This document shows positions 1,136 to 21,511 of a stretch of DNA of 25,112 bases, in pieces. Position numbers and translations under genes: made by a program. The DNA is from a virus (Duplodnaviria; Heunggongvirae; Uroviricota; Caudoviricetes), in the IMG/VR virus record IMGVR_UViG_2703718778_000012; one strand, given 5' to 3'. The notes below the pieces were generated by a model. The model was given only the letters and a program-made list of their open reading frames with translations. It was not told the DNA's origin and made no database searches. Every line of letters starts with the position of its first letter. Positions within the stretch are counted from its first letter, which is position 1.

Positions 1136-2812
1136 CTAAGCAACATGTAGTTCATCGTTGGCGGAAGTGGCTGCTTTGCGCTCCTGCTCAATAGCTAGAG
1201 ACTCTCTATATTCTTTCGCCTCTGCAAACATTGTCCAGTGGGCGTTGATGTTCATGTCTTCAATAACTGATTTGATTTCTTTTAAATTTACGTTAAAAAA
1301 CTCTTTTCGTGAGTTAATTTTATTGACCTGCTTTTCGTTGAAAACTTTATGCAGATGGTTTTCTAATGATGGTGCATCATCACTATAAATCATCGCATGA
1401 ACATCGAACGAAAAAGGAACACTAGCATCTCCGAGTTCACGAACACGATCAAGTGGTTCAAGGCGGCGTGTCATTCCAATTTTATATACATCTTCGCCAA
1501 ATGAACCAATATTACTAATGATATAGACGTGGCCTGATCTGGTTTGTTGAGCCATAGAAATAGCTCGTTGATTTTTAGCTTCAGCTTCTTCATATTTTAA
1601 CTGTAGTTCAGCTATTTTTTGCTCTAAAGCTAAGCGTTGTTCTTCATTTGCAAGCATAAGTTCTTTCGTTGCTTTATTTATAGCTTGCTGAATAGCTTTT
1701 TCTTCTTTTTCAGCTTCTTTTATCGCTTTTTCATATTCTCTACGAGCTCTTTCCTCTTCACGAAGCTGTTCTTTAATCCTTCTTTGCTCTTCTTTTTCTT
1801 CGAGCATAATTTCATTAACTGCTACACCCCATTTTAGCTCGTTGAGTCTTGCCTGAAGATAGATGTCACTTATTTTTGCGGACCTAAAGGCAGAGCCATT
1901 GTAATTTACTAGTTGAAATGCATCTTTTATTTCTTGGGAAAGTTTTCCAAAATTGTTGTGTTTGACTTTTGATAAAATACTGTCAACTCTTCCATTGAAG
2001 GCATCCAAAACAAAGTTTATGGCAGTATTACGCCTGTTTTGCTCAACATAATCACACGAAGCAGCTTTATTAGTTTTTATTAATGATTTGGTTAACTCTC
2101 TGGCTTTTTGTAATTCCTTGCCTGCATCTGTAAATTCATAATTTTCTGCCAGCTCATCAAGTACACTACGGTTAGGGATGATCCATTCATCACCATAACC
2201 TTCAATTTTATTTTTCATTGATTTTGCAACTGCTTCATATTTTTCTGCAAACTCTTTAGCTTCATATGCTGAACCAGCAATCTCCTTTGCTCTTTCTTCT
2301 GCATCAGAAATAATTTTTACTGCATTGTCATTAGCATTTGAGATTAGCACATTTGCTTTATTATTAGCATTATCAAGACGTTCTTTGGCTTTCAGGCGTG
2401 CATCGCGAGCGTCTTTGGTGATTGCTATAGCTTCGCTATTAGCGTTGCTTATTGTCATCTGAGCTTGATAATTTGCTTCGTTTACTGTTTTAGCCGCCTT
2501 AATTTGGGCTTCATCTATTTTTTGCTTGGCTATTGAGTCCGCATTTTTTATCTTATTCTCTGCATCCATTACTGCGCTGTGCAATTCTTCGTATTGCCAC
2601 AATGGTGCTGCTCGCCCTTCAAGCTCTGATAATTCTCGTACGGTCTGTGCTAGTTTTTCTTGATTTTCAATCAGTTGGTTGGAAAGGGCTATGTTGTTAG
2701 CTGTCAGGTTATCTATAGCCGCTTTGTGTTTTTTACTTTGTTTAAATAATATTACAGCTAGAACAGGGGCGAGAAATGCTAATAAGAGTATAACGATGGC
2801 AAATGAATTCAT
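1136..2812 (-). CDS. Membrane-anchored coiled-coil protein with C-terminal GIY-YIG-like (T5orf172/DUF4041-type) nuclease domain
   Basis: 558-aa ORF. N-terminal hydrophobic helix (FAIVILLLAFLAPVLAVILF), about 350 aa of K/E/A-rich heptad-like sequence, then C-terminal GHVYIISNIGSFGEDVYKIGMTRR...E...FFNV, which fits a GIY-x(10-12)-YIG core with following conserved R/E/N. Strongly AT-rich compared with flanking int and cI. AAGGA Shine-Dalgarno 7 nt before the ATG; only 20 nt downstream of the cI stop. Confidence 0.65.
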   Translation of the reverse strand: MNSFAIVILLLAFLAPVLAVILFKQSKKHKAAIDNLTANNIALSNQLIENQEKLAQTVRELSELEGRAAPLWQYEELHSAVMDAENKIKNADSIAKQKIDEAQIKAAKTVNEANYQAQMTISNANSEAIAITKDARDARLKAKERLDNANNKANVLISNANDNAVKIISDAEERAKEIAGSAYEAKEFAEKYEAVAKSMKNKIEGYGDEWIIPNRSVLDELAENYEFTDAGKELQKARELTKSLIKTNKAASCDYVEQNRRNTAINFVLDAFNGRVDSILSKVKHNNFGKLSQEIKDAFQLVNYNGSAFRSAKISDIYLQARLNELKWGVAVNEIMLEEKEEQRRIKEQLREEERARREYEKAIKEAEKEEKAIQQAINKATKELMLANEEQRLALEQKIAELQLKYEEAEAKNQRAISMAQQTRSGHVYIISNIGSFGEDVYKIGMTRRLEPLDRVRELGDASVPFSFDVHAMIYSDDAPSLENHLHKVFNEKQVNKINSRKEFFNVNLKEIKSVIEDMNINAHWTMFAEAKEYRESLAIEQERKAATSANDELHVA

Positions 2813-2832: not shown

Positions 2833-3429
2833 TTAATTCGAGACTATTGTACTTCTTATACAAGCAACCACTTCAATATCAGAAAATGCACATTCAAAGC
2901 TATTCTCTGCTGTTGTAATTTTAATCATTCCTTTAGGAAGCCTTGTGATTTTTCGAATGGAATAGGTTCCGTCGATATTGATTAACCAGTTTCCATCAAG
3001 TACTTCAGAAAATTTTTGATCACAAATGTATGTGACGAGTCCATCCTGAACAACAATTGGTGATGAAAGGTTTGCAGGAAGAAATGATGAATCGAAGACA
3101 TATGAACCGTCTTCAATCATTTTGCCTGCGGCAAGGCGAAACTTAACAAGCTCTTCTGTAGCTGCTGTCAGCGAGCTTTGCTTAAGGCCTTGTCCGGTAG
3201 TTAACCATTTGAGGGAGGTTCCTGTTTCAAGAGCACATTGGATTATCCAGTCAGCAGGAAATGTATCCCGCAAATACCTGTTCGCTAGTGTGCTTTTTGA
3301 TACTTCCAAGTGATCAGCTAAAGCCTGTCGTGTCGTAAAGCCATAGGCTTCGACTAATCGCTCAATCGCAGCCTTACCACCTTTATTGGGATTTATTTTG
3401 ATCTCACTTGGGTACTTTGATGTTGACAT
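2833..3429 (-). CDS. cI: CI-type immunity repressor (phage 186 CI-like)
   Basis: 198 aa (186 CI is about 192 aa). N-terminal segment AYGF..RQALADHLEVSKSTLANRYLR......CALETGTSLKWLTTGQG resembles a 186 CI-type DNA-binding domain. Position between int and a divergent apl/cII operon matches P2/186 synteny. Confidence 0.75.
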   Translation of the reverse strand: MSTSKYPSEIKINPNKGGKAAIERLVEAYGFTTRQALADHLEVSKSTLANRYLRDTFPADWIIQCALETGTSLKWLTTGQGLKQSSLTAATEELVKFRLAAGKMIEDGSYVFDSSFLPANLSSPIVVQDGLVTYICDQKFSEVLDGNWLINIDGTYSIRKITRLPKGMIKITTAENSFECAFSDIEVVACIRSTIVSN

Positions 3430-5579: not shown

Positions 5580-6433
5580 GCACTATCCTGAAATGGGCGG
5601 GAAATAAAACCGCCATTATGCCAGAACTGAAAAAATACCTTCCTGCTGGCCCGCGACTGGTTGAACCTTTCGCGGGTTCCTGTGCTGTGATGATGGAAAC
5701 GGATTATCCCAGCTATCTGGTTGCGGATATTAATCCTGATTTAATCAACCTCTATAAAAAGGTTGCCGCTGATTGTGAATCGTTTATATCTCGCGCCAGA
5801 GTTTTATTTGAGATCGCAAACAGGGAGGTGGCTTATTACAACATAAGGCAGGAGTTTAACTGCTCAACAGAAATTACTGATTTCATGAAAGCGGTATATT
5901 TCCTGTATCTCAATCGTCACGGTTACCGTGGTTTATGTCGCTATAACAAGAGCGGGCATTTCAACATTCCCTACGGTAATTATAAAAATCCGTATTTCCC
6001 TGAAAAAGAAATTCGCGTATTTGCAGAAAAAGCCCAGCGGGCAACGTTTATCTGCGCCAGCTTTGATGAAACGCTGGCGATGTTGAAGGCGGGGGATGTG
6101 GTGTATTGCGATCCGCCGTATGACGGTACGTTTTCCGGCTATCACACTGACGGTTTCACTGAAGATGACCAGTATCACCTTGCGTCCGTTCTTGAACATC
6201 GGTCATCAGAAGGACATCCGGTCATTGTTTCTAACAGTGATACATCCCTGATCCGTTCGCTGTATCGCAATTTTACTCACCACTATATCAAGGTAAAACG
6301 CAGCATCGGTGTGGCAGCTGGCGAGGGTAAATCAGCAACAGAAATCATTGCTGTTTCCGGGCCGCGCTGCTGGGTGGGATTTGATTATTCGCGTGGCGTG
6401 GATAGTTCTGCCGTGTACGGAGTACGTGCATGA
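5576..6433 (+). CDS. dam: DNA adenine methyltransferase (Dam family, orphan)
   Basis: 285 aa. N-terminal ILKWAGNK...EPFAGSCAV (AdoMet-binding motif I) and CDPPYDG (motif IV, DPPY) are diagnostic of N6-adenine methyltransferases. Start overlaps the upstream stop (ATGA). No restriction partner is adjacent. Confidence 0.85.
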
Positions 6434-8844
6434 GTCATGCCGATATGAACAACTGCAGCGGCGTTAACGAGGTCGCCGCAGCATTCTCATGGAACAGTCC
6501 GAAAAAGGCTGTTAACCCTTATCTGGACCCGGCGGAAGTTGCGCCGGTTTCTGCGCTTTCAAACCTGATCACTCTGTACGCTGCCGATAACAAGCAGGAA
6601 CAACTGCGCCGCGAGGCACTGAGTGATCAGGTCTGGGAGCGTTATTTCTTTAATGAATCCCGTGATCCTGTCCAACGCGAAATGGAGCAGGATAAGCTCA
6701 TTAGCCGGGCAAAGCTGGCGCATGAGCAGCAGCGTTTTAATCCGGACATGGTCATACTGGCGGACGTTAACGCCCAGCCTTCCCATATCAGCAAGCCGCT
6801 GATGCAACGTATTGAATACTTCAGCAGCCTGGGCAGGCCAAAGGCTTATTCCCGCTATTTGCGTGAGACGATTAAGCCATGTCTGGAACGGCTGGAGCAT
6901 GTACGCGACAGTCAGCTATCCACTTCTTTTCGCTTTATGGCAAGCCATGAAGGGCTGGACGGCCTGCTGATTCTGCCTGAAATGAGTCAGGATCAGGTGA
7001 AACGCCTGTCCACCCTTGTTGCTGCGTATATGAGCATGTGCCTTGATGCAGCTTGTGGCGATTTGTATGCCACCGATGACGTTAAGCCAGAAGAAATCCG
7101 CAAGACATGGGAAAGGGGGGCGGCGGAAACCCTGCGTCTGGATGTCATTCCTCCTGCGTTTGAGCAACTCCGTCGGAAAAGAAACCGCCGTAAACCCGTG
7201 CCCTATGAACTCATTCCGGGTTCGCTGGCGCGTATGTTGTGCGCCGACTGGTGGTATCGGAAATTATGGAAGATGCGTTGCGAATGGCGGGAAGAGCAGT
7301 TGCGCGCTGTCTGCCTGGTCAGCAAAAAAGCATCTCCTTATGTCAGCTATGAAGCCGTGATGCATAAACGTGAGCAGCGCCGTAAGTCGCTGGAGTTTTT
7401 CCGTTCTCATGAACTGGTGAACGAAGACGGCGACACGCTGGACATGGAGGATGTGGTAAACGCCAGCAGCAGCAACCCGGCGCATCGCCGCAATGAGATG
7501 ATGGCCTGTGTTAAAGGTCTGGAGCTTATCGCGGAAATGCGCGGTGACTGCGCCGTTTTCTACACCATCACCTGTCCGTCACGTTTCCATTCCACGCTAA
7601 ATAACGGCAGGCCCAACCCAACCTGGACAAATGCGACGGTAAGACAAAGCAGTGATTATCTGGTCGGCATGTTTGCTGCATTTCGTAAGGCGATGCACAA
7701 AGCCGGATTGCGGTGGTATGGCGTGCGGGTGGCTGAGCCGCATCATGACGGTACAGTTCACTGGCACCTGTTGTGTTTTATGCGCAAAAAAGACCGCCGC
7801 ACCATCACTGCATTACTGCGTAAGTTTGCCATCCGTGAAGACCGCGAGGAGCTGGGCAATAACACTGGGCCGCGCTTTAAGTCTGAGTTGATTAACCCGC
7901 GCAAAGGTACGCCAACAAGCTACATCGCGAAATACATTAGTAAGAACATTGACGGGCGTGGTCTGGCTGGCGAGATCAGCAAGGAAACGGGGAAATCCCT
8001 GCGTGATAATGCTGAATACGTTAATGCCTGGGCGTCTCTGCATCGTGTTCAGCAATTCCGCTTCTTTGGCATTCCGGGGCGTCAGGCTTACCGTGAACTG
8101 CGATTGCTGGCTGGTCAGGCGGCAAGGCAACAGGGGGACAAAAAAGCAGGTGCGCCGGTACTGGATAACCCGCGCCTTGATGCCATTCTGGCTGCTGCTG
8201 ATGCTGGTTGTTTTGCCACCTACATCATGAAGCAGGGTGGCGTACTGGTTCCCCGCAAATATCACCTCATCAGAACTGCTTATGAAATCAACGAAGAGCC
8301 AACCGCCTATGGCGATCACGGCATTCGTATTTATGGCATCTGGTCACCTATTGCAGAGGGCAAGATCTGCACTCATGCCGTGAAGTGGAAAATGGTTCGT
8401 AAGGCCGTTGACGTTCAGGAGGCGGCAGCCGACCAGGGCGCTTGCGCCCCTTGGACTCGTGGCAATAACTGTCCCCTTGCTGAAAATTTGAACCAGCAGG
8501 AGAAAGATAAATCAGCTGATGGGGACACCAGAACGGACATTACCTGCATGGATGACAAGGAGTTGCACGATTATCTGCACAGTATGAGCAAAAAAGATCG
8601 CCGGGAACTGGCAGCAAGGTTACGCCTGGTGAAACCGAAACGGCGTAAAGACTACAAACAGCGAATTACAGACCATCAGCGACAGCAGCTTGTCTATGAA
8701 CTGAAGTCCAGAGGATTTGATGGCAGCGAGAAAGAGGTCGAGTTGCTCCTTCGCGGTGGCAGTATTCCGTCAGGAGCAGGCCTGCGTATCTTCTATCGGA
8801 ACCAGCGTCTGCAGGAGGATGATAAATGGCGGAACATGTATTAA
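6430..8844 (+). CDS. A: Replication initiation protein A (rolling-circle HUH endonuclease, P2 gpA family)
   Basis: 804 aa. HUH motif in VHWHLLCF and candidate catalytic tyrosine in YIAKYISK. Size and position after the early operon match P2/186 gene A. Start overlaps the dam stop. Confidence 0.9.
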
Positions 8845-8912
8845 TTACGCTGATTAACAATTCGTGCTCTTAATAATACCAGGCATATCAGGCTGATGAA
8901 CGTAAAAAAACG

Positions 8913-8954
8913 TTTTACATCAGTAAGATTATTATATACTGTAAATATAAACAG
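8913..8954 (+). promoter_or_regulatory. SOS promoter: TTTACA-N16-TATACT with an overlapping LexA box CTGTAAATATAAACAG
   Basis: CTGT-N8-ACAG at 8939-8954 matches the E. coli LexA consensus CTGTATATATATACAG at 14 of 16 positions and overlaps a sigma70-like -10 element; it lies about 45 nt upstream of the GGAGGA-ATG of the following ORF. Confidence 0.5.
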
Positions 8955-8997
8955 TGGTTATGTATACAGTATTGCTTGTGGTGTCATAGGAGGAAAA

Positions 8998-9186
8998 ATG
9001 CAGGACTATTTTTTGGAGTCTTTGAAGCTCCAGCGCATTGATTTTTTTCTTAAGCTTGTAGCGGCTAGTGAGTGTAGTGATGAAGAGAAGGGGCTGGCTT
9101 TGCAGTGGGTTTCTGAACTAACAGATGAACTCATGGCAAAAATCAGAACCCACGAATACAACCGCTCAATGGATGTCATCAGTTGA
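8998..9186 (+). CDS. Small SOS-induced protein (possible Tum-like antirepressor N-terminal part)
   Basis: 62 aa from the ATG at 8998, preceded by a strong GGAGGA Shine-Dalgarno. The ORF track's upstream extension to 8896 would read through the LexA box, so I discount it. Confidence 0.5.
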   Translation: MQDYFLESLKLQRIDFFLKLVAASECSDEEKGLALQWVSELTDELMAKIRTHEYNRSMDVIS

Positions 9187-9196
9187 GGTGACTTTT

Positions 9197-9430
9197 ATGC
9201 GCATTGAAATAATGATCGATAAAGAGCAGAAGATTAGCCAGTCTATCCTGGATGCCCTTGAATCCGAGCTTTACCGCAATCTGCGCCCCCTGTATCCAAA
9301 AACGGTAATTCGTATCCGCAAAGGTAGCTCTAACGGTGTGGAACTGACCGGACTGCAACTGGACGAAGAAAGAAAACAAGTGATGAAAATTATGCAGAAG
9401 GTGTGGGAAGACGACAGCTGGCTGCATTAG
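9197..9430 (+). CDS. DinI-family protein
   Basis: 77 aa. MRIEIMIDK...LDALESELYRNLRPLYP...VIRIRKGSSNGVELTG...KIMQKVWEDDSW parallels E. coli DinI (MRIEVTIAK...) in length and pattern. Confidence 0.7.
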   Translation: MRIEIMIDKEQKISQSILDALESELYRNLRPLYPKTVIRIRKGSSNGVELTGLQLDEERKQVMKIMQKVWEDDSWLH

Positions 9431-9558
9431 AGAACGTTGCGGATGATAAAACTAGCTTTTACCATCTGCAAGGCTGAACAACGATTGTAGCGAGGTGTTA
9501 GGTGGTTCAAAAGTAAAGCGGTTATTTTGCCCGTAAAAGTGAACCACCTGTATCTTGA

Positions 9559-10299
9559 TCAGTTTTCTTTGAATTTTTCACTTAATCGTTTCGTCAATAC
9601 TTCGACAGATTCTTTGCGACCGGAGAACAAGTCATTGACGACGTACTCCATAATCTCAAAAGCATCCTCAATGTCTTTGACTTTTACTTCATCGTAGGTA
9701 TGGCTTCCGGCATTTCCTAAAAATTTAATTGCCATAAGAGGTCTTGAAAACGATCCGTATAATTCAGGTAGCATCCCTAAACGGTGGTGTAGAGTTATGC
9801 GTTTGCCATTATCATTACGTTCAGCTACATCCATAGCGGTTAGCATTCTTTCAACTGAAATTCGAATTAGGTTTGCTGCTGCGCCAGGCTGTATTAGGAA
9901 AATGGAAAATGAGGCTTCAAGCGGTTCGGTAATTTCTTCTGGGCATTTTTCAGGTATTTCGAAAGGATGCAGTGATGGGTAAAAGGTGAAAGGTCTGTGC
10001 CATTGATAGTACTCAATATCATTTCTTTCTTCATCCCAACCTTGTTCCCATCCACTCTTACCAGTACAGGCCACAACTTCACCACATTGCATTCTTGAAC
10101 AGCGGGCCATGCAACTGAAAATAGATGAATCCATTTCTGGTTCAAACCAATCTTCACTGCGGAATTTTCGGGTATCATGTGTGTCATACGAGACGAAACT
10201 TTCTTTAATGATCTGTAGGGTTTTCTGATTGCAGTTAGGGCAGGGCCACTCAACCTGCATATCGTGGAAAAACGCACCAGAGAGCTTGTGCACAGTCAT
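9559..10299 (-). CDS. Hypothetical protein with N-terminal Cys-rich (zinc-ribbon-like) region and C-terminal alpha-helical domain (possibly DUF4145-like)
   Basis: 246-aa ORF, AT-rich relative to backbone. CPNCNQ ... CMARCSRMQCGEVVAC suggests a metal-binding module. The C-terminal half (AAANLIRISVERML...FLGNAGSH) is helical; the DUF4145 assignment is from memory only. Transcribed divergently from the HNH operon. Confidence 0.65.
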   Translation of the reverse strand: MTVHKLSGAFFHDMQVEWPCPNCNQKTLQIIKESFVSYDTHDTRKFRSEDWFEPEMDSSIFSCMARCSRMQCGEVVACTGKSGWEQGWDEERNDIEYYQWHRPFTFYPSLHPFEIPEKCPEEITEPLEASFSIFLIQPGAAANLIRISVERMLTAMDVAERNDNGKRITLHHRLGMLPELYGSFSRPLMAIKFLGNAGSHTYDEVKVKDIEDAFEIMEYVVNDLFSGRKESVEVLTKRLSEKFKEN

Positions 10300-10445
10300 T
10301 CTTTGTGTTCCTCATTTTTATGATTGGTAGGGATTGTATCTTCATACACGATTACAGTTGCATTAAAGATAAGCCATAGCAAGCTACTGGAAAAGAGACG
10401 AAACAGTTGGGCATATCAGATGTTTTTTCTTAAGGTAAGTTGTTG

Positions 10446-10546
10446 TGCATGCCTATACTGCATGAGATTGCATGATCGTTTGAGGATCGTTATTGCTAAG
10501 GCCCACCAGAACTGGCGGGCTTTTGCGTAGAGCATGCAGGTGCATG
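10446..10546. repeat. Cluster of five GCATG motifs, including the direct repeat TGCATGA-N3-TGCATGA
   Basis: TGCATG at 10446, 10459 and 10469; GCATGC at 10532; TGCATG at 10541. Lies between the 246-aa gene start and the cos-like sequence. Confidence 0.35.
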
Positions 10547-10569
10547 AAAACCACTACATAAAGCGGGCA

Positions 10570-10600
10570 GGCGTGGCGGGGATACGAGCGCGCGCTCACC
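10570..10600. other. cos: Candidate cos site (cohesive-end region)
   Basis: GGCGTGGCGGGGATACGAGCGCGCGCTCACC closely resembles the P2/186 cohesive-end region as I remember it (P2 GGCGAGGCGGGGAAAGCAC followed by TGCGCGCTGAC). Includes a perfect palindrome GAGCGCGCGCTC. This is a GC-rich island within AT-rich flanks. Confidence 0.5.
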
Positions 10601-10676
10601 ACAATTAGCAAGCTTGCTTATAGGGTTGTTCAGTAATAAATTAACATCCTAATTTCTATACTTTTAAGGTTAGTTC

Positions 10677-11372
10677 ATGGCTTGCAGTAGGGGAAAAGCT
10701 TCTCCAAACGCTAATACAGTTAGACGGCTTTTTGCCAGCTCAGGTGGCTTTTGCCAAAATCCACAATGCTTGCAACCTTTGTTTGTTGATGCTGGCGACA
10801 AAAATATAACAATTGGAGAACTTGCTCACATTTTTAGTGCCATTGATAATGGACCTAGAACCAATGCTGATCTAACTGATGAGCAGAGAGGTCATTTTGA
10901 CAACATTATTCTTCTATGTGCTAATTGCCATACGACAATTGATAAGGCAGAGGAACATTTTACTGATGAAATTATCCGTTCTTGGAAAAACGGCCATATT
11001 GATAAAATAAATGCAACCTTTGGTGTTAAAACATATGACAATCGAGAATCTGTTAGACAGGAGTTAGAAAAATACTTCAGAGAAAACAATACCATTTTTG
11101 TAACATATGGACCAACCCAAGAGAACAGCGTTGACCCTGAAAATCCAAATGCAGAAGTATGGTTAAGAAAAGTACAATCTCATATCTTACCCAACAATAG
11201 AAAAGTACAGCGACTGGTTGAACAAAACTATCACCTCATGAGTGAAGATGAGAAGAATGTTTTTTCAAAGCTTTGTGTTCATATAGATGACTTTGAATCA
11301 AAACATTTGGGCTTAACCGATGCTAATGGTAGTAGGTTTCCAGAAGCTGCATCTGAACTATTTATAGGATGA
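10677..11372 (+). CDS. HNH-family endonuclease
   Basis: 231 aa. GGFCQNPQC ... ELAHIFSAIDNGP ... DNIILLCANCHTTIDK contains the His / Asn / Cys-x2-Cys-His elements of an HNH beta-beta-alpha-metal fold. AT-rich. First gene of a three-gene operon with overlapping stop/start codons. Confidence 0.75.
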   Translation: MACSRGKASPNANTVRRLFASSGGFCQNPQCLQPLFVDAGDKNITIGELAHIFSAIDNGPRTNADLTDEQRGHFDNIILLCANCHTTIDKAEEHFTDEIIRSWKNGHIDKINATFGVKTYDNRESVRQELEKYFRENNTIFVTYGPTQENSVDPENPNAEVWLRKVQSHILPNNRKVQRLVEQNYHLMSEDEKNVFSKLCVHIDDFESKHLGLTDANGSRFPEAASELFIG

Positions 11373-12028
11373 ATCCAATGAGCATAAATGCGAGTGAAGG
11401 CTATATTTCATGGATGGCAGGAAAATTGCAAGAAAATAAATGTGTCGAAAATATAGAGGTGATAGGTGATGGTACTTTAGTGATTAATACTACACAGGGT
11501 GACACCTATTTGATCGGGGCAATCAATACTGGCCGGATAACATGTCCTGAGATAAATGAATACCTAGACAATAAAAAAATTGATTTTCTATCAGTCAAGG
11601 GAGGTGTTGAATTTATCTCTGGTGATGCAATGAGATTACTAGAACAAAAGAAAATAGGAGTGGGTTCATTTGGGCATATTGCATCTTCTTTAAGAGCTAA
11701 TAATCCGCTTGAGCATCTTGATAAAGAGCATTTGTTTATAAATAGAGTGTTCAATCAACATTCACATGTAAGCTCTGTAGAGCGAGAAACCAACAAAAAA
11801 TATAGACTTAAAAGACGTGGCTTGGCGGACTTAGTTATTATCGCTGCGAATGATTATGATATGACAGCGGGTTCTGTAAGAGATGCGATAGGGTTGCATG
11901 GCAATTGTGATGTTGTTTTTTCCTCCAATCCTAATGGACGATTGACGACTCAGGCAAAAGAGGCTGCTCAAAGTATCGGGGTGGAGCTTTACAAGTTGGG
12001 TGATTTATTACGAAGAATTTCACGGTAG
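11369..12028 (+). CDS. Hypothetical protein (middle gene of HNH/NTase operon)
   Basis: 219-aa ORF whose start overlaps the HNH stop (ATGA). No motif I can assign with confidence; contains RVFNQH (R-x4-H), which is weakly reminiscent of a HEPN motif. Confidence 0.65.
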   Translation: MNPMSINASEGYISWMAGKLQENKCVENIEVIGDGTLVINTTQGDTYLIGAINTGRITCPEINEYLDNKKIDFLSVKGGVEFISGDAMRLLEQKKIGVGSFGHIASSLRANNPLEHLDKEHLFINRVFNQHSHVSSVERETNKKYRLKRRGLADLVIIAANDYDMTAGSVRDAIGLHGNCDVVFSSNPNGRLTTQAKEAAQSIGVELYKLGDLLRRISR

Positions 12029-12345
12029 TGAATTTTAAACATACGATTGAATCGATCTGTGATGTTATTATCCATCATAGTTTATATATGGTGGATGTAT
12101 ATGTATTTGGGTCAGCATTAAAGAGTTTTTGCGATGCAAATGATATTGATATGCTTGTGATAGGTGATTGTGTCGATGGTTTATTATTGAAGCGAAAGCT
12201 GCGGGAGCTTGATTTATTTGTTCCTGTTCATATTATTACAATGACGCATTCAGAAGAGTATGAACTGGGATTTATTAAGTCAGTTGGCACTTCTCTGCTT
12301 GTTGTTGATAAAAGCGTTAAGATCAATTTTGTATGTGGTATATAA
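12028..12345 (+). CDS. Minimal nucleotidyltransferase (Pol-beta superfamily, MNT-like)
   Basis: 105 aa. VYVFGSALKSFCDANDIDMLVIGD fits the GS-x(9-13)-DxD signature of minimal nucleotidyltransferases. Probable GTG start overlapping the upstream stop (TAGTG); an internal ATG is an alternative start. Confidence 0.6.
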   Translation: MNFKHTIESICDVIIHHSLYMVDVYVFGSALKSFCDANDIDMLVIGDCVDGLLLKRKLRELDLFVPVHIITMTHSEEYELGFIKSVGTSLLVVDKSVKINFVCGI

Positions 12346-12356
12346 CGGGTGGCAAT

Positions 12357-12394
12357 AAGCCTCTTCTTTGGATGGGTTTCTAAAGAAGAGGCTT
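12357..12394. terminator. Strong hairpin between convergent operons (candidate bidirectional terminator)
   Basis: Perfect 13-bp inverted repeat AAGCCTCTTCTTT (12357-12369) / AAAGAAGAGGCTT (12382-12394) with a 12-nt loop, placed between the end of the NTase gene and the stop of Q. Confidence 0.5.
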
Positions 12395-12397
12395 TAA

Positions 12398-13426
12398 TTA
12401 CAAGGAGTAATCTTGGAATTTTATTACGTCATCATGTAGCCAATTGTTCACCTCTCTAATTCGTTGTTGAAGAGGCTTTAATTCATTACGTACAAAAACC
12501 GTGGATGCCTTCTCCACATCCCCAAACCCGCCAACATTATTCGGCATGATACCCATCATTTGCGGAGGCACGCGGTGTGCCGCCATCATGTCATCCCGGC
12601 TCACGTTCTTGATGTTCAGAAATTCATCCTTTGCCGCGACTTCTGACAACGGGATAATCTGAAGACCATCCTTTTTGCCGTTAGGTGAGTACATAAACAG
12701 GTTGCGGAAGTTGCCTGGACCTTTGGCGCTTTTCATTGCGTTGCGGAGGTTGTTCACATCCTCCTGGTTCTGCGCAGCATCGGTCATGTACATGATGAAG
12801 CCAGCATGACTGCCGTTAATGTAATACTTTCGGCGGAACAGCGTGGCGGACTCGTTGAGCAGGGCTGACGGAATGGCAGAAAGATAACCGGGCAGGCCGT
12901 AGATCTCCTGGTTGATGTCCGGTTCCATCAGATGAAAGATGCTGCCTTTCGTGAACTGATATGGCTGCGTGGTCATACCGTATTGCACAAACCAGTAGGT
13001 ATCCAGGTCTAACCCGCGTCGGGTGTATTTTGCCAGGGCAGGTTCAAGGGCGATAACTTCACCGAAGCGGTTCGTGCGTTTCTCCAGGTAGGCGTTACCA
13101 AATACCAGATAGTCCTGCACAAAACGCGAAAAAGCCTGCTGGCTGAGCAGCGGGTGAGGGATGTAGGTGCTGGTCAGAATGTTGCACTTTACTGCAATCG
13201 GGGAACTATGATGCACGGCAGCGCGGAAGGTGCGCGCCAGTCCGTCAAAGCTGACGGGCGGCTCATACCAGCGGTCCATCTGTACGCATTCCACATAATC
13301 CAGCAGTTCTCGGCGGTCCAGAACAGGAACGGGATCGCCGAAGCTGAATGCTTCGGCTGTAGTTTGACTTTTAAGCTGGATCTGTTTCGTCGCCGCAGTG
13401 CGGTTCTTCTTACTCTTTCCCATCAA
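12398..13426 (-). CDS. Q: Portal protein (P2 gpQ family)
   Basis: 342 aa. Extended similarity to my recollection of P2 gpQ (GDPVPVLDRREL..., YLVFGNAYLE..., LNESATLFRRKYY.NG.HAG.IMY.TDA, IPLSEVAAKD.F.NIK, FVRNEL.PLQ.RIRE.N.WL). Start overlaps the P stop. Confidence 0.9.
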   Translation of the reverse strand: MMGKSKKNRTAATKQIQLKSQTTAEAFSFGDPVPVLDRRELLDYVECVQMDRWYEPPVSFDGLARTFRAAVHHSSPIAVKCNILTSTYIPHPLLSQQAFSRFVQDYLVFGNAYLEKRTNRFGEVIALEPALAKYTRRGLDLDTYWFVQYGMTTQPYQFTKGSIFHLMEPDINQEIYGLPGYLSAIPSALLNESATLFRRKYYINGSHAGFIMYMTDAAQNQEDVNNLRNAMKSAKGPGNFRNLFMYSPNGKKDGLQIIPLSEVAAKDEFLNIKNVSRDDMMAAHRVPPQMMGIMPNNVGGFGDVEKASTVFVRNELKPLQQRIREVNNWLHDDVIKFQDYSL

Positions 13427-15189
13427 AAAATCTCCACAATATTGCTGGTATTGGCGGATTCGCCCTGCAGCGGTTCGTTAAACAGTGCGTGCATCGTTGC
13501 CCAGGCCAGATCGGCGTGGCTGGCTTCTTCGCTGCGGCTGGCTTCATAGGTCGGGCGGTTGCCACTGGCGGTGGTGGCGCGACGGATTGCCATAAAGGAC
13601 TGCGCTATGTCGGTGTGTCCGGCGTCAAACTCCAGACGGCGGTGGCTGATAATGTCGTAGGCCTTGAGTACCAGGGCGTTTTTAACGTTGGGGTTGTAGA
13701 CAAACTCCCGGACGGCAGGAAAAAACGCTTTCACGTTCTCGTAAACCCCGTGACCAACGCCGGTTGAGTCGATACCGATATAGGTCACGTTGTACTGTTC
13801 GGTCAGTTTTTTGATGGCGTCAGCCTGGGCGCGGAAGTCCATCCCGCGCCACTGGTGACGCTCAAGAATGCGAAACTTACCGCCTGGCACGGCTGGCGGT
13901 GCCACCACCACGCATCCGGCGCTGTCGCCGTTCTGCGTACCTTTTGCCGGGTCATAACCGATCCACACCTCGCGCCAGCCAAACGGGCGCAGGGCCAGTG
14001 CATGAAAGTCGGTCCAGACTTCCCAACTGTCCACCATGCACGCCTGCAGTTCGCTGAGCGGGAACACGGACGCGAGATCGTCCACGAACTCGCACATCAG
14101 CAGGTTCTGGTATTCGTCCGGGCTGTACTCCATGCGTAGCTGGTCGAGGTCGAACAGGTTACAGCCGCCGCGCACCGCATCTTCCACGGTGACTATCTGG
14201 CGGTATTGCCCGTCTGCGCACAGCAAGCCGGGGGCCAGATTGTTGTGGGACAGGTCGATGTCCACCTTATCGGCTTTGTTGCGCCCACGGTTAAACAGCG
14301 CACCGGACCAGAACGGATAAGCACTGTGTGTCAGGCTGGATGGCGTGGAAAAATAGGTTTGTCGCCATTTTTTGTGAATAGCCATACCGGAAGCCACTTT
14401 GCGCAGCTCCTGGAATTTCGGTATCCAGAAATATTCATCCAGATACAGGTTGCCGTGGTAACTCTGGGCCGTGCGGGCATTGGTGCCGAGGAAGTACAGC
14501 GTGGCCCCGTTAGGAAGCACCATCGGATCGCCTTTCAGCTCCACCTCCACTTCTTTGGCGAAGTCGATGATGTACTGCTTAAAGACGTGGGCCTGAGCCT
14601 TGCTGGCGGAAAGGAAAATCTGATTACGCCCGGTTAGCAGGGCGTCAATCAGGGCTTCACGGGCAAAATAGAAGGTCGCGCCGATCTGGCGTGACTTCAG
14701 CAGGTTGCGGATGCGGTTGGTTTTTCCGGCTTCCCACCAGTGGCGCTGGTAGTTGAACATGGAGGAATGGAAGATTTCTTCCAGCTTCTCAATCTGTTCA
14801 TCGGTGAAAACGTTCTTTTCCGGCTGACGGCGCGGGCCTTTGTTGCGGTTGGCGACGTTAGGGTTTAAGTCGGCTTCGTTGCCGCCATTGTTAAACTTGC
14901 CGATCCGCGCATGGCGCTCCGACTGGCGCGCCAGCAGGTCAATCTCTTTGAAATCTTTCCCTTCTTTGTGCTCCTTCATAATGAGCTGGCAGTAGCGTGC
15001 GGCGGTGGTGAGCTGCATCTGATCCAGCGGCCCATAGTCACCCCACTTGTCGCGTTTTTTCCAGCTGTGAACGGTTGCAACTTTCTCGCCCAGCATTTCA
15101 GCAATGCGGGCTACGCGGTATCCCTGAAAGTACAGCAGCATGGCCTGCCGACGGGGATCGAGATCTGCGGGTGTCAGTGTGGTGTTCAT
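13423..15189 (-). CDS. P: Terminase large subunit (P2 gpP family)
   Basis: 588 aa (P2 gpP is about 590). Location and orientation upstream of Q, divergent from O, match P2 synteny. Confidence 0.9.
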   Translation of the reverse strand: MNTTLTPADLDPRRQAMLLYFQGYRVARIAEMLGEKVATVHSWKKRDKWGDYGPLDQMQLTTAARYCQLIMKEHKEGKDFKEIDLLARQSERHARIGKFNNGGNEADLNPNVANRNKGPRRQPEKNVFTDEQIEKLEEIFHSSMFNYQRHWWEAGKTNRIRNLLKSRQIGATFYFAREALIDALLTGRNQIFLSASKAQAHVFKQYIIDFAKEVEVELKGDPMVLPNGATLYFLGTNARTAQSYHGNLYLDEYFWIPKFQELRKVASGMAIHKKWRQTYFSTPSSLTHSAYPFWSGALFNRGRNKADKVDIDLSHNNLAPGLLCADGQYRQIVTVEDAVRGGCNLFDLDQLRMEYSPDEYQNLLMCEFVDDLASVFPLSELQACMVDSWEVWTDFHALALRPFGWREVWIGYDPAKGTQNGDSAGCVVVAPPAVPGGKFRILERHQWRGMDFRAQADAIKKLTEQYNVTYIGIDSTGVGHGVYENVKAFFPAVREFVYNPNVKNALVLKAYDIISHRRLEFDAGHTDIAQSFMAIRRATTASGNRPTYEASRSEEASHADLAWATMHALFNEPLQGESANTSNIVEIF

Positions 15190-20324: not shown

Positions 20325-20763
20325 ACTGCAGAAGGTGGACGACTGGCTGAGTGCCTTGCTGGCGAATCTGGAACCAGCCACGAGAAGCCGCATGATGCGC
20401 CAGCTGGCGCAGGAACTGCGCCGGACACAGCAGCAGAATATCAGGATGCAGCGCAATCCAGATGGCAGCAGTTATGAACCGCGCAGGGTAACAGCACGTA
20501 GCAAGAAGGGGCGCATCAAACGTCAGATGTTTGCAAAGCTGCGCACCACCAAATACCTGAAAACCGCCGCCAGCGCCGACTCTGCCTGCGTACAGTTTGA
20601 AAGTAAGGTGCAGCGCATTGCCCGCGTTCACCATTATGGCCTGCGCGATCGCGTCAGCCGCAAAGGACCGGAAGTGCGTTACGCAGAGCGTCGTTTGTTG
20701 GGTCTTAATGGTGAGTCTTACGTTCTAACTCTTGATATATTGAATAGATTCCTTCTGTCTTGA
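20317..20763 (+). CDS. S: Tail completion protein S (P2 gpS family)
   Basis: 148 aa. ...LAQELRRTQQQNIRMQRNPDGSSYEPRRVTARSKKGRIKRQMF...VQRIARVHHYGLRD.VSR.GPEVRY parallels P2 gpS. GTG start overlaps the R stop. The last roughly 18 codons are AT-rich and overlap the convergent cargo gene. Confidence 0.85.
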   Translation: MAELQKVDDWLSALLANLEPATRSRMMRQLAQELRRTQQQNIRMQRNPDGSSYEPRRVTARSKKGRIKRQMFAKLRTTKYLKTAASADSACVQFESKVQRIARVHHYGLRDRVSRKGPEVRYAERRLLGLNGESYVLTLDILNRFLLS

Positions 20764-21511
20764 ATTCACCATATGCCCAATGAATTGCATTTTTTTGTTC
20801 AGTCAGAATATATTTCCTAACTTTTTTAGAATAGTGAATGGTCAGTATAAAACCCAAAGAAATCCATAATAGAATAAATATGGTTGTTGGGGCAAAGGAA
20901 TAGATAAAGAATTTGTCTTTAACGAAATTCTTGACTTCTTCATCAATGTAAGCATTCCCTTCATCAGTGGTTAGTAGTTTACAAAGAATTTCTTTATGTT
21001 CGATAGTTAATGATTTGTACTTCTCTGTACTGGCAGAGGATGACTCTTCGCAATCATCCTTTGATATTTCCCAATCAGGAGTGGTTAATATTGTAGCTGC
21101 AGTCGCCAGTTTTTTTGACATATAAAATGATTCACCGGACTTTATCCAATAAAGCAATGTGCTATTTGGTGGGGTTCTAATGGCTTGGATGAAAACTGGA
21201 CCAAAAATATAAATTGCATACAAAAAAAGAAGTGAAAAGAGAACCGTGATTGATTTTTCAGCCCATGTGATAGTAGGCAGCCTTTTTAATGATATTCGTA
21301 TAAGAAAAAAATTTAATATAAACGCAGGTATTCCTGATTTTTTCAAAATTACATCATGAGATTTTCTATATTTGAATAGTGCTCTTATAACTATCGTCAC
21401 CAAAGTTATAACAGCTCCAATAATGGAAATCCATGCGGCAAGTGCCGCTGCCGGGGTGTTTAAAAATTCAGCATTAAATATATTAGAACTTATTGGATTC
21501 ATAACACTCAT
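20705..21511 (-). CDS. Multi-pass membrane protein (cargo gene, unknown function)
   Basis: 268-aa ORF, strongly AT-rich. At least three hydrophobic helices (AALAAWISIIGAVITLVTIVI; SITVLFSLLFLYAIYIFGPVFI; FIYSFAPTTIFILLWISLGFILTI) flank a roughly 80-aa charged soluble segment. GGTGG Shine-Dalgarno 4 nt before the ATG. Inserted between S and V, antisense to the late operon. Confidence 0.7.
   Translation of the reverse strand: MSVMNPISSNIFNAEFLNTPAAALAAWISIIGAVITLVTIVIRALFKYRKSHDVILKKSGIPAFILNFFLIRISLKRLPTITWAEKSITVLFSLLFLYAIYIFGPVFIQAIRTPPNSTLLYWIKSGESFYMSKKLATAATILTTPDWEISKDDCEESSSASTEKYKSLTIEHKEILCKLLTTDEGNAYIDEEVKNFVKDKFFIYSFAPTTIFILLWISLGFILTIHYSKKVRKYILTEQKNAIHWAYGEFKTEGIYSIYQELERKTHH

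Follow-up and report, generated by a model that had tools for sequence, protein, structure and literature searches.

Packaging in the P2 family of phages centers on a short, well conserved site. [quoted passage not shown] In the retron Ec67 and Ec86 prophages (Dodd and Egan 1996), and in phiCTX and phiRSY1, foreign DNA takes the place of the segment that runs from the cos core to the terminator, or to the 3' end, of the packaging/portal gene. A P2 defence hotspot has since been defined as the whole gpA-gpQ interval by Rousset et al. 2022 (PMC9122126), and the two sides of cos are not separated in the available portions of that study or of a P2/P4 hotspot survey (PMC13586616). The cos-Q slot, then, was described decades ago and is one half of the gpA-gpQ defence hotspot.

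The window analyzed here, a stretch of 25,112 nt, is a prophage of Escherichia coli that falls in the Fels-2-like branch of the P2 family. Its genes run from gpA (6430-8844) through cos to Q (12398-13426) and P (13423-15189), which puts the replication/accessory region on one side of cos and the packaging genes Q and P on the other, as in P2, 186 and P4. Q, on the minus strand with its stop codon at 12398-12400, matches PF04860, is a phage portal protein in RefSeq and shares 62% identity with each of P2 Q and 186 W. Between cos and Q lies a three-gene operon that encodes an HNH protein, inside the gpA-gpQ hotspot. The slot and the kind of boundaries are those of the Ec67, Ec86, phiCTX and phiRSY1 cargo, and the cargo itself is a three-gene HNH module rather than a retron or toxin gene. 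It is very likely that the site at 10570 is a P2-family cos and that the cargo beside it occupies this known slot in an ordinary layout.

A 31-nt string resembling the P2/186 cohesive-end region had been picked out at 10570-10600 in the initial annotation, which proposed aligning it with P2 and 186. The string is present exactly as given, and multiple alignment sets 10570 against the first nucleotide of each of the P2 and 186 records, which is annotated there as the cohesive end. A degenerate P2-family cos pattern (GGCGWGGCGGGGAWASSAB, at most two mismatches) matches the 25-kb window once, at 10570-10588 on the plus strand, and has no match in 100 dinucleotide-preserving shuffles. Pattern and alignment, together with the record of Salmonella phage SEN8, predict these 19 nt, GGCGTGGCGGGGATACGAG, as the cohesive end with which the left end of the mature genome begins. 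They agree with 186 at 15 of 19 positions, with P2 at 14 of 19 and with SEN8 at 19 of 19; the annotated "putative" cos of SEN8 is identical over the first 26 nt from 10570 (26/26), and its record starts with the same 26 nt and has as its last base the equivalent of window position 10569. Judged from sequence, cleavage would fall at 10569/10570, and 10570-10588 would form a 19-nt 5' cohesive end. Features held in common with P2, 186 and P4 include the GGCG(A/T)GGCGGGG start, the GCGCGC directly after the 19 nt, and an upstream TGCAT(G/T)AAAACC...AAGCGGGC segment aligned in register; around the cut, alignment with P2 and 186 holds from about -36 to +26. Overhang positions 14-19 differ, reading ATACGAG in the window, AAGCAT in 186 and AAGCAC in P2. 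The window's variant, a predicted cohesive end, is common to SEN8 and most Enterobacterales relatives of the window's Q.

Comparison by blastn delimits a conserved cos block of about 155 bp at 10441-10596, with limits at about 10441/10445 and 10594/10596 and unrelated DNA on both flanks. It is kept in 54 of 78 usable loci with a related portal gene, nearly all of them from Enterobacterales. Five GCATG(A/C) elements lie within it, at 10447, 10460, 10470, 10532 and 10542, as does a terminator-like hairpin at 10501-10525 on the plus strand (GCCCACCAG..CTGGCGGGC, then TTTTG), found by direct reading. This hairpin is conserved in the alignment, its stem is perfect in relatives, and its position corresponds to that of 186 terminator t95b, annotated upstream of the 186 right end, so that it may well act as a terminator. 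Of the packaging signal delimited by this block, about 129 bp belong to the right-end side and 26-27 bp to the left-end side of the cut. Because conserved sequence reaches so short a distance into the left end, everything from about +27 as far as the 3' end of Q is free to vary, and the left-end side tolerates any cargo.

From the cut to the Q stop this free interval measures 1,828 bp at a GC fraction of 0.368 (Q and P, 0.554; gpA, 0.531), in agreement with the AT-rich gap of about 1.8 kb first described. The P2 spacer had been given as about 0.1 kb; it is indeed short, but the figure is nearer 0.19 kb (186 bp in P2, 195 bp in 186). A short spacer is typical of the P2 and 186 clades (175-189 bp in 77 of 79 P2-clade spacers) and not of phages outside them. 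The idea that the cargo sits at an unusual insertion point is not supported by the comparison of cos-Q spacing across P2-like prophages, since an occupied spacer is the rule in the Fels-2-like lineage, exceeding 300 bp in 45 of 54 and 73 of 75 loci with medians of about 1.6 kb. The first of these samples, GTDB species-representative loci, has a median of 1,618 bp (under 300 bp in 9, at least 1 kb in 38), and the second consists of IMG/VR relatives whose Q is 93-98% identical, with a median of 1,574 bp (under 300 bp in 2) and at least 45 distinct cassettes; both were picked by similarity to the window's Q and the IMG/VR set includes close relatives, so the counts are not of independent events. 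Cargo between cos and the portal gene is normal in this P2-like branch, and the layout of the window is therefore ordinary.

What fills the slot varies widely. It holds a 1.7-kb gene in Fels-2, an AIPR gene in RE-2010 and, in Klebsiella phage 4LV2017, a gene for a retron effector with one annotated "polymerase" after it; in SEN8 it holds 2.2 kb of DNA that includes an annotated HNH endonuclease. PADLOC and Pfam searches of 89 spacer ORFs recovered bSEFIR, AbiLi, AriA, Old, PD-T4-9, TIR, SIR2, KAP and DndB, and nearly all cassette ORFs are directed from cos toward Q. The extent of the replaceable unit is clearest against the prophage of E. coli MS8345, which matches the window at 99.4% identity over 8800-10594, has unrelated DNA in place of 10595-12461, and matches again from 12462 at 94.8%. 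The replaceable cassette thus spans 10595-12461 (plus strand, GC 0.367) and includes ~21 codons at the 3' end of Q. Other cassettes have the same boundaries, and in the window no transposase, integrase or repeats flank this one. A 15-nt exact repeat at 12385-12399 and 12469-12483 was considered as a candidate recombination footprint; it is only partly present in an Enterobacter copy of the cassette. Unrelated low-GC cassettes are exchanged in the slot, and the presumed route is recombination within the conserved sequences on either side of it, the cos block and Q.

As first proposed, the operon lies across cos from the classical tin/old (TO) slot of P2. If the prophage packages, about 107 bp would separate the left terminus of its linear DNA from the start of the operon. 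The operon resembles the TO region in being made of low-GC accessory genes, candidates for defence here, that adjoin cos and are transcribed away from it, but the TO region is on the right-end side. That side of the window is occupied as well, by a DUF4145 gene at 9559-10299 on the minus strand (PF13643, 5e-13; PADLOC PD-T7-4, 2e-5; PHROG 1305), also directed away from cos. MS8345 shares this gpA-side gene at 99.4% and has a different cassette on the Q side.

The three genes of the cassette all lie on the plus strand, at 10677-11372, 11369-12028 and 12028-12345; each stop overlaps or abuts the next start, and the genes are translationally coupled. Gene 1 encodes 231 aa with an N-terminal HNH nuclease domain of the Cap5 type, spanning aa 5-125 and followed by a C-terminal portion of ~110 aa without an assigned domain; its HNH residues, by reading, are C26/C31/C81/C84, H51, N76 and H85. 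It matches Pfam HNH_2 (E 2e-4) and, in PADLOC, CBASS HNH-SAVED effectors (1e-22) and the candidate system component PDC-M68A (2e-29, over profile positions 8-110 of 253 only), while its closest solved relatives are the Cap5-type chains 8fm1 and 7rwm, CBASS Cap5 effectors. A literature search for PDC-M68 returned no paper. Gene 2 (219 aa; RefSeq start 11378) has a restriction-endonuclease-like PD-(D/E)xK fold. Gene 3 (105 aa) resembles a small nucleotidyltransferase of the Pol-beta superfamily, with Pfam matches to Polbeta (E 2e-3) and NTP_transf_2 (E 9e-3) that are both below gathering score; it shares 39% identity with the third gene of a Hymenobacter module, which itself has a weak Polbeta match. 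NCBIfam has no match to any cassette gene, PHROGs gives gene 1 weak matches to families of unknown function and genes 2 and 3 none, and genes 2 and 3 match nothing in PADLOC, including its models of named systems.

No convincing sigma-70 promoter emerged from a consensus scan of 10597-10676; judged by eye, the nearest approach is a -10 hexamer, TATACT at 10657-10662, whose -35 partner is poor. At the other end, the converging stop codons of the cassette and Q are separated by a 16-bp stem-loop at 12357-12396, missed by a terminator scan and revealed by direct folding (-28.9 kcal/mol, z -5.3, on the plus strand; -22.1 kcal/mol, z -8.0, on the minus strand). The Q strand has no clear U-tract. 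The records of P2 and 186 place tQ and tW, respectively, at the equivalent position, and the stem-loop is likely a bidirectional terminator, a function suggested by its fold and position. Each of the other cassettes inspected has a different hairpin at this same place, as though each would end in a terminator of its own against the Q stop.

Among known systems gene 1 comes close to the HNH-SAVED effectors of CBASS, and it is to the Cap5 N-terminal domain that its HNH domain is most similar. The similarity stops there. Membership of CBASS is defined by an HNH-SAVED fusion and a CD-NTase gene; residues 125-231 of gene 1 have no SAVED match, the cassette has no CD-NTase, and the partners are instead a nuclease-fold protein of ~220 aa and a nucleotidyltransferase-like protein of ~100 aa. 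The three genes are conserved as a unit that recurs across phyla. This three-gene set occupies the same slot in relatives, with gene 2 at 50-59% protein identity; E. coli STEC17-183 and the common laboratory strain E. coli ATCC 8739 carry the cassette, and the same gene order is found in Hymenobacter, a Pseudomonas prophage and a Chromobacterium defence island. Gene 1 has 376 full-length homologues across phyla. A word-indexed protein search had limited gene 2 to 12 Enterobacterales clusters, a result overturned by an exhaustive HMMER search and direct comparisons, which place its family in 289 clusters across phyla. Both the slot and the neighborhoods of the module elsewhere are rich in recognized defence genes. 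The module would most likely be an anti-phage or abortive-infection system expressed from the prophage, with the HNH protein as DNA-cutting effector; we give this candidate system about an even chance of having a defence role. Table S5A of Rousset et al. 2022 (PMC9122126) includes the products of genes 1 and 3 (WP_000752436 and WP_001009569) as "hypothetical", and the cassette proteins were not found in the part of that study's supplementary protein sequences that was searched. The operon was also considered as that study's validated system of "three genes without predicted domain"; no link was found, its sequences being absent from the same searched part and genes 2 and 3 having no match among PADLOC models of named systems.

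Could the three genes be a selfish mobile element or an addiction cassette of the toxin-antitoxin type, with no anti-phage role, kept because the slot tolerates insertions? A nucleotidyltransferase antitoxin might, for example, act against a nuclease toxin. Small Pol-beta-type nucleotidyltransferases paired with nuclease-like proteins resemble MNT-type antitoxin arrangements, and a protein of this kind does stand beside nuclease-like proteins here, in a module of low GC and patchy distribution. The lack of any flanking transposase, integrase or repeats and the boundaries held in common with other cassettes argue against a self-mobile element, and the company of recognized defence genes, in the slot and elsewhere, argues against a purely selfish role. 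We regard this explanation as unlikely, and since toxin-antitoxin behavior and defence are not mutually exclusive, it is more a variant of the defence reading than a rival to it.

Far less probable is a site at 10570 that is a relic, or a defective prophage, with packaging elsewhere or nowhere and a 1.8-kb interval that is not terminal. The initial annotation had itself put forward 12350-12397 as a place where the ends might map, and the end at 10570 is a prediction from sequence. Yet the window holds no second cos-like sequence, near Q or elsewhere, even with two mismatches, and 12357-12396 is the cassette-specific hairpin that differs in each other cassette inspected. The 155-bp block, moreover, is 92-95% identical to the Fels-2, RE-2010 and Klebsiella phage records, which have the same layout, and the head, packaging and replication ORFs that flank cos are all intact.

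The least probable explanation of all makes gene 1 a packaging accessory, an aid to terminase in cos cleavage of the HK97 gp74 type, and not cargo: HNH proteins adjoining terminase genes reportedly participate in cos-phage packaging, gene 1 starts 107 bp away from cos, close to the genes for terminase and portal, and the same interval of SEN8 includes an annotated HNH endonuclease, but that protein is unrelated to gene 1, phages with near-identical cos, Q and P hold at least 45 unrelated cassettes there, mostly without HNH, so that no HNH gene is conserved with terminase and cos among related phages, P2 and 186 have annotated cohesive ends with only ~190 bp and no gene in the interval, and gene 1 is roughly double the length of packaging HNH proteins, has CBASS Cap5 effectors as its closest solved relatives and occurs with the same two partners in non-phage chromosomal contexts in other phyla.

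With the cargo thus best read as a candidate defence module at an ordinary P2-family cos, the cos finding itself adds little, one more Fels-2-like E. coli prophage with the layout standard for its lineage. Its wider interest is in how the gpA-gpQ hotspot is organized: it behaves as two sub-slots split by cos, and cargo lies on the gpA side in the P2 clade and mostly on the Q side in the Fels-2 clade. We tentatively propose, at somewhat less than even confidence, that the two sub-slots assort independently, with a strict outward (cos-to-Q) gene orientation on the left-end side, and that the module is an unnamed anti-phage system ranging from Enterobacterales prophages to Bacteroidota chromosomes, in which gene 2 or gene 3 would control the HNH protein. 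A compact three-gene module that crosses phyla and has no assigned function is a candidate for a defence assay.

The window is a P2-family prophage. Its segment 10300-12700 recurs at 100% identity in the chromosomes of E. coli STEC17-183 and JNEC-KY179, and at about 99% in ATCC 8739 and some ten further complete genomes. The integrase (1-1053) and CI repressor (2833-3429), both on the minus strand, are followed on the plus strand by the gpA replication endonuclease (6430-8844) and a DinI/Tum-like gene (9125-9430), and then by a minus-strand DUF4145 gene (9559-10299) on the classical gpA-cos (tin/old) side. Portal gene Q (12398-13426) and terminase gene P (13423-15189) lie on the minus strand, with O, N, M, L and other late genes beyond P. 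The initial annotation placed an operon between cos and Q, and this map is correct: the 1,828 bp from 10570 to the Q stop hold three genes on the same strand, each stop overlapping or abutting the next start, at a GC content of 0.368 as against 0.554 for Q and P. Integrase and repressor flank a low-GC gene of 558 aa (1136-2812, minus strand; GC 0.35-0.39) with DUF4041 and T5orf172/MUG113 domains and a PADLOC match to PD-Lambda-1 (4e-120); it forms a second defence cargo of this prophage, located in another slot. A further low-GC island (20705-21511, minus strand; 0.35-0.42) sits within the late genes between the presumed S and V ORFs, at the position of P2 orf30, and encodes, on the opposite strand, a 268-aa DUF6216 protein with no PADLOC match.

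The first gene of the operon (10677-11372; 231 aa) carries an N-terminal HNH domain, with key residues, by reading, at C26/C31/C81/C84, H51, N76 and H85. It matches PADLOC PDC-M68A (2e-29) in its N-terminal half only, as well as the HNH domains of CBASS HNH-SAVED effectors in PADLOC and solved Cap5-type structures. There are 376 homologues at E <= 0.001, and the best 120 of these are almost all full-length, 45-55% identical and spread over many phyla. The second gene (11369-12028) has a restriction-endonuclease fold, and the third (12028-12345; 105 aa) gives below-threshold matches to Pol-beta nucleotidyltransferases. The three travel together as a widespread unnamed unit of constant gene order (HNH, ~220 aa, ~100 aa). 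Other P2-like phages have them in the same slot (gene 2 at 50-59% identity), and they recur in an Enterobacter prophage (84% nucleotide identity), on a Hymenobacter chromosome (locus L098, 4001-5651; identities of 29% for gene 2 and 39% for gene 3), next to the S24 repressor of a Pseudomonas prophage (L099, 4001-5359), and in Chromobacterium (L101, 4001-5631) beside an ABC-three-component-like system (CTD7/MC3/LmuB_C) and an nSTAND3/Mrr gene. The unit may be an uncharacterised defence or abortive-infection module in which the HNH protein would be the effector. Could the cassette be purely selfish, or a toxin-antitoxin unit? This seems rather unlikely, and such a role would overlap with the defence reading. 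A role for the HNH protein in packaging, like that of HK97 gp74, is contradicted: the cassette is freely swapped among phages with the same cos and terminase, the HNH protein of Salmonella phage SEN8 is unrelated to gene 1, and the gene 1 family is found outside phages too.

The 31-mer likened by the initial annotation to the P2/186 cohesive-end region is present at 10570-10600. A degenerate P2/186-type cohesive-end pattern, allowing up to two mismatches, has a single match in the 25 kb, at 10570-10588, and none in 100 shuffled sequences. Nucleotides 1-19 are annotated as the cohesive end in the P2 and 186 reference records; the window's 19-mer is identical at 15/19 positions to that of 186 and at 14/19 to that of P2, and GCGCGC follows immediately in all three. 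The SEN8 record opens with the same 26 nucleotides as the window, annotated as a "putative cos site", and its final base aligns with 10569. When the circularised ends of P2 and 186 are aligned with the window and eleven prophages, 10570 corresponds to nucleotide 1 of P2 and 186, and the upstream segment TGCAT(G/T)AAAACC...AAGCGGGC is shared. The in-register alignment with 186, P2 and SEN8, together with the single pattern match, bears out the cos call at sequence level, with 10570 as the predicted left end. That 10570 is a relic and the real site lies near 12350-12397 is contradicted, as the window contains no second cos-like sequence and the hairpin at 12357-12396 is specific to the cassette.

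Conservation around the cut was surveyed in 80 loci, one genome per species, encoding relatives of the window's Q. Of the 78 that were usable, 54, almost all from Enterobacterales, keep a discrete block with edges at about 10441/10445 and 10594/10596 and unrelated DNA on either side. Because the block edges fall there, the conserved signal covers about 129 bp on the right-end (gpA) side of the cut and just 26-27 bp on the left-end (Q) side. It includes five GCATG(A/C) elements in two clusters, separated by a terminator-like hairpin followed by TTTTG (10501-10525), in the same position as t95b of 186. The GCATG repeats are putative terminase recognition elements. For the cos regions of the P2 family, PMC5694545 cites a conserved 55-bp core (Ziermann and Calendar, 1990), which agrees with the portion of the block that can be aligned to P2 and 186.

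The short cos-Q spacer given in the initial annotation holds for P2 (186 bp) and 186 (195 bp) but is clade-specific, and the idea of an unusual insertion point is not borne out. Across the 54 species representatives that have the cos block, the distance from cut to Q stop has a median of 1,618 bp (9 below 300 bp, 7 between 300 and 1,000 bp, 38 of at least 1 kb). A set of 75 IMG/VR contigs, with a Q 93-98% identical to the window's, gives a median of 1,574 bp; only two of these spacers are below 300 bp, and they form at least 45 unrelated sequence clusters, with the window's cassette found once. Deposited phage records of the group have the same layout. Between cos block and Q, Fels-2 carries a 1.7-kb gene and SEN8 two genes; in RE-2010 the slot holds an AIPR gene with the annotation "prevents superinfection", and in Klebsiella phage 4LV2017 an effector gene of the retron St85 family precedes a gene annotated "polymerase". 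A 1.8-kb spacer is therefore not unusual, and the window's lineage carries cargo in this slot by default. Of 79 IMG/VR contigs whose Q matches that of P2 at 99% identity or more, 77 have spacers of 175-189 bp. The other two have 1,458 and 1,894 bp, as against the usual ~188 bp, so that the P2 clade occasionally uses the slot too.

A prophage of E. coli MS8345 delimits the exchanged unit. It is 99.4% identical to the window over 8800-10594, a stretch that includes the gpA end, the DinI gene, the same DUF4145 gene and the cos block; past 10594 it is unrelated, with one 470-aa gene in the slot, and identity returns at 12462 (94.8%). The replaceable unit therefore spans about 10595-12461 and takes in the hairpin as well as the final ~21 codons of Q. 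Since the same DUF4145 gene accompanies a different cos-Q cassette, the two sides of cos assort independently. The DUF4145 protein has a weak PD-T7-4 match and belongs to PHROG 1305, "DNA binding protein". Each further cassette inspected has its own, different GC-rich hairpin between cargo stop and Q stop; that of the window (12357-12396) forms a far more stable fold than shuffled sequence, with z -5.3 and -8.0 for the two strands. The simplest mechanism of exchange would be recombination within the flanks that are conserved. An exact 15-nt direct repeat, GAAGAGGCTTTAATT, lies at 12385-12399, where it makes up the right arm of the terminator hairpin and runs on into the stop codon of Q, and at 12469-12483, 84 bp away inside Q and in the same frame. 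Nucleotide homology with the window's Q ends exactly at 12483 in many relatives. The Enterobacter cassette has just part of the repeat, which may be a recombination footprint. Q also contains a terminator-like hairpin with a T-run (GGATGTGGAGAAGGCATCC ACGGTTTTTG; 12503-12521, minus strand), about 100 nt ahead of its stop and near the start of its variable 3' tail.

What else does the slot carry? In 45 loci of a GTDB sample, 86 of 89 cargo ORFs read from cos to Q, as in the window, and hence convergently with Q, a strong orientation bias that was not found stated in the literature consulted. PADLOC assigns bSEFIR, AbiLi, AriA, Old, PD-T4-9, PD-T7-4 and several candidate systems among the 89, and Pfam adds TIR, SEFIR, KAP NTPase, SIR2, DndB, Schlafen/AlbA_2, putAbiC and OLD-like TOPRIM domains; one case from E. 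coli is a TIR gene pair. The cos-Q slot is a defence-gene hotspot. The cosL-Q position was suggested as a hotspot for foreign genes in PMC5694545, citing Dodd and Egan (1996) and Nakayama (1999), and foreign-gene uptake there is repeated in PMC6868368 and PMC7826664. Rousset et al. (2022; PMC9122126) delimit the P2 hotspot, near cos, by gpA and gpQ, with 1,650 gene arrangements. Among the hotspot content in their Table S5A, WP_000752436 and WP_001009569 appear as "hypothetical", for example in NZ_CP022959 (ATCC 8739); in RefSeq these are genes 1 and 3 of the window's operon. The accessible portions of that paper and of a later survey of P2/P4 defence hotspots (PMC13586616) do not treat the two sides of cos separately. 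The slot has been cited for foreign-gene uptake since 1996, and two of the operon's proteins stand in a published hotspot catalogue. The residual value of the finding lies in a three-gene module of putative defence function and in a finer picture of the hotspot as two sub-slots.
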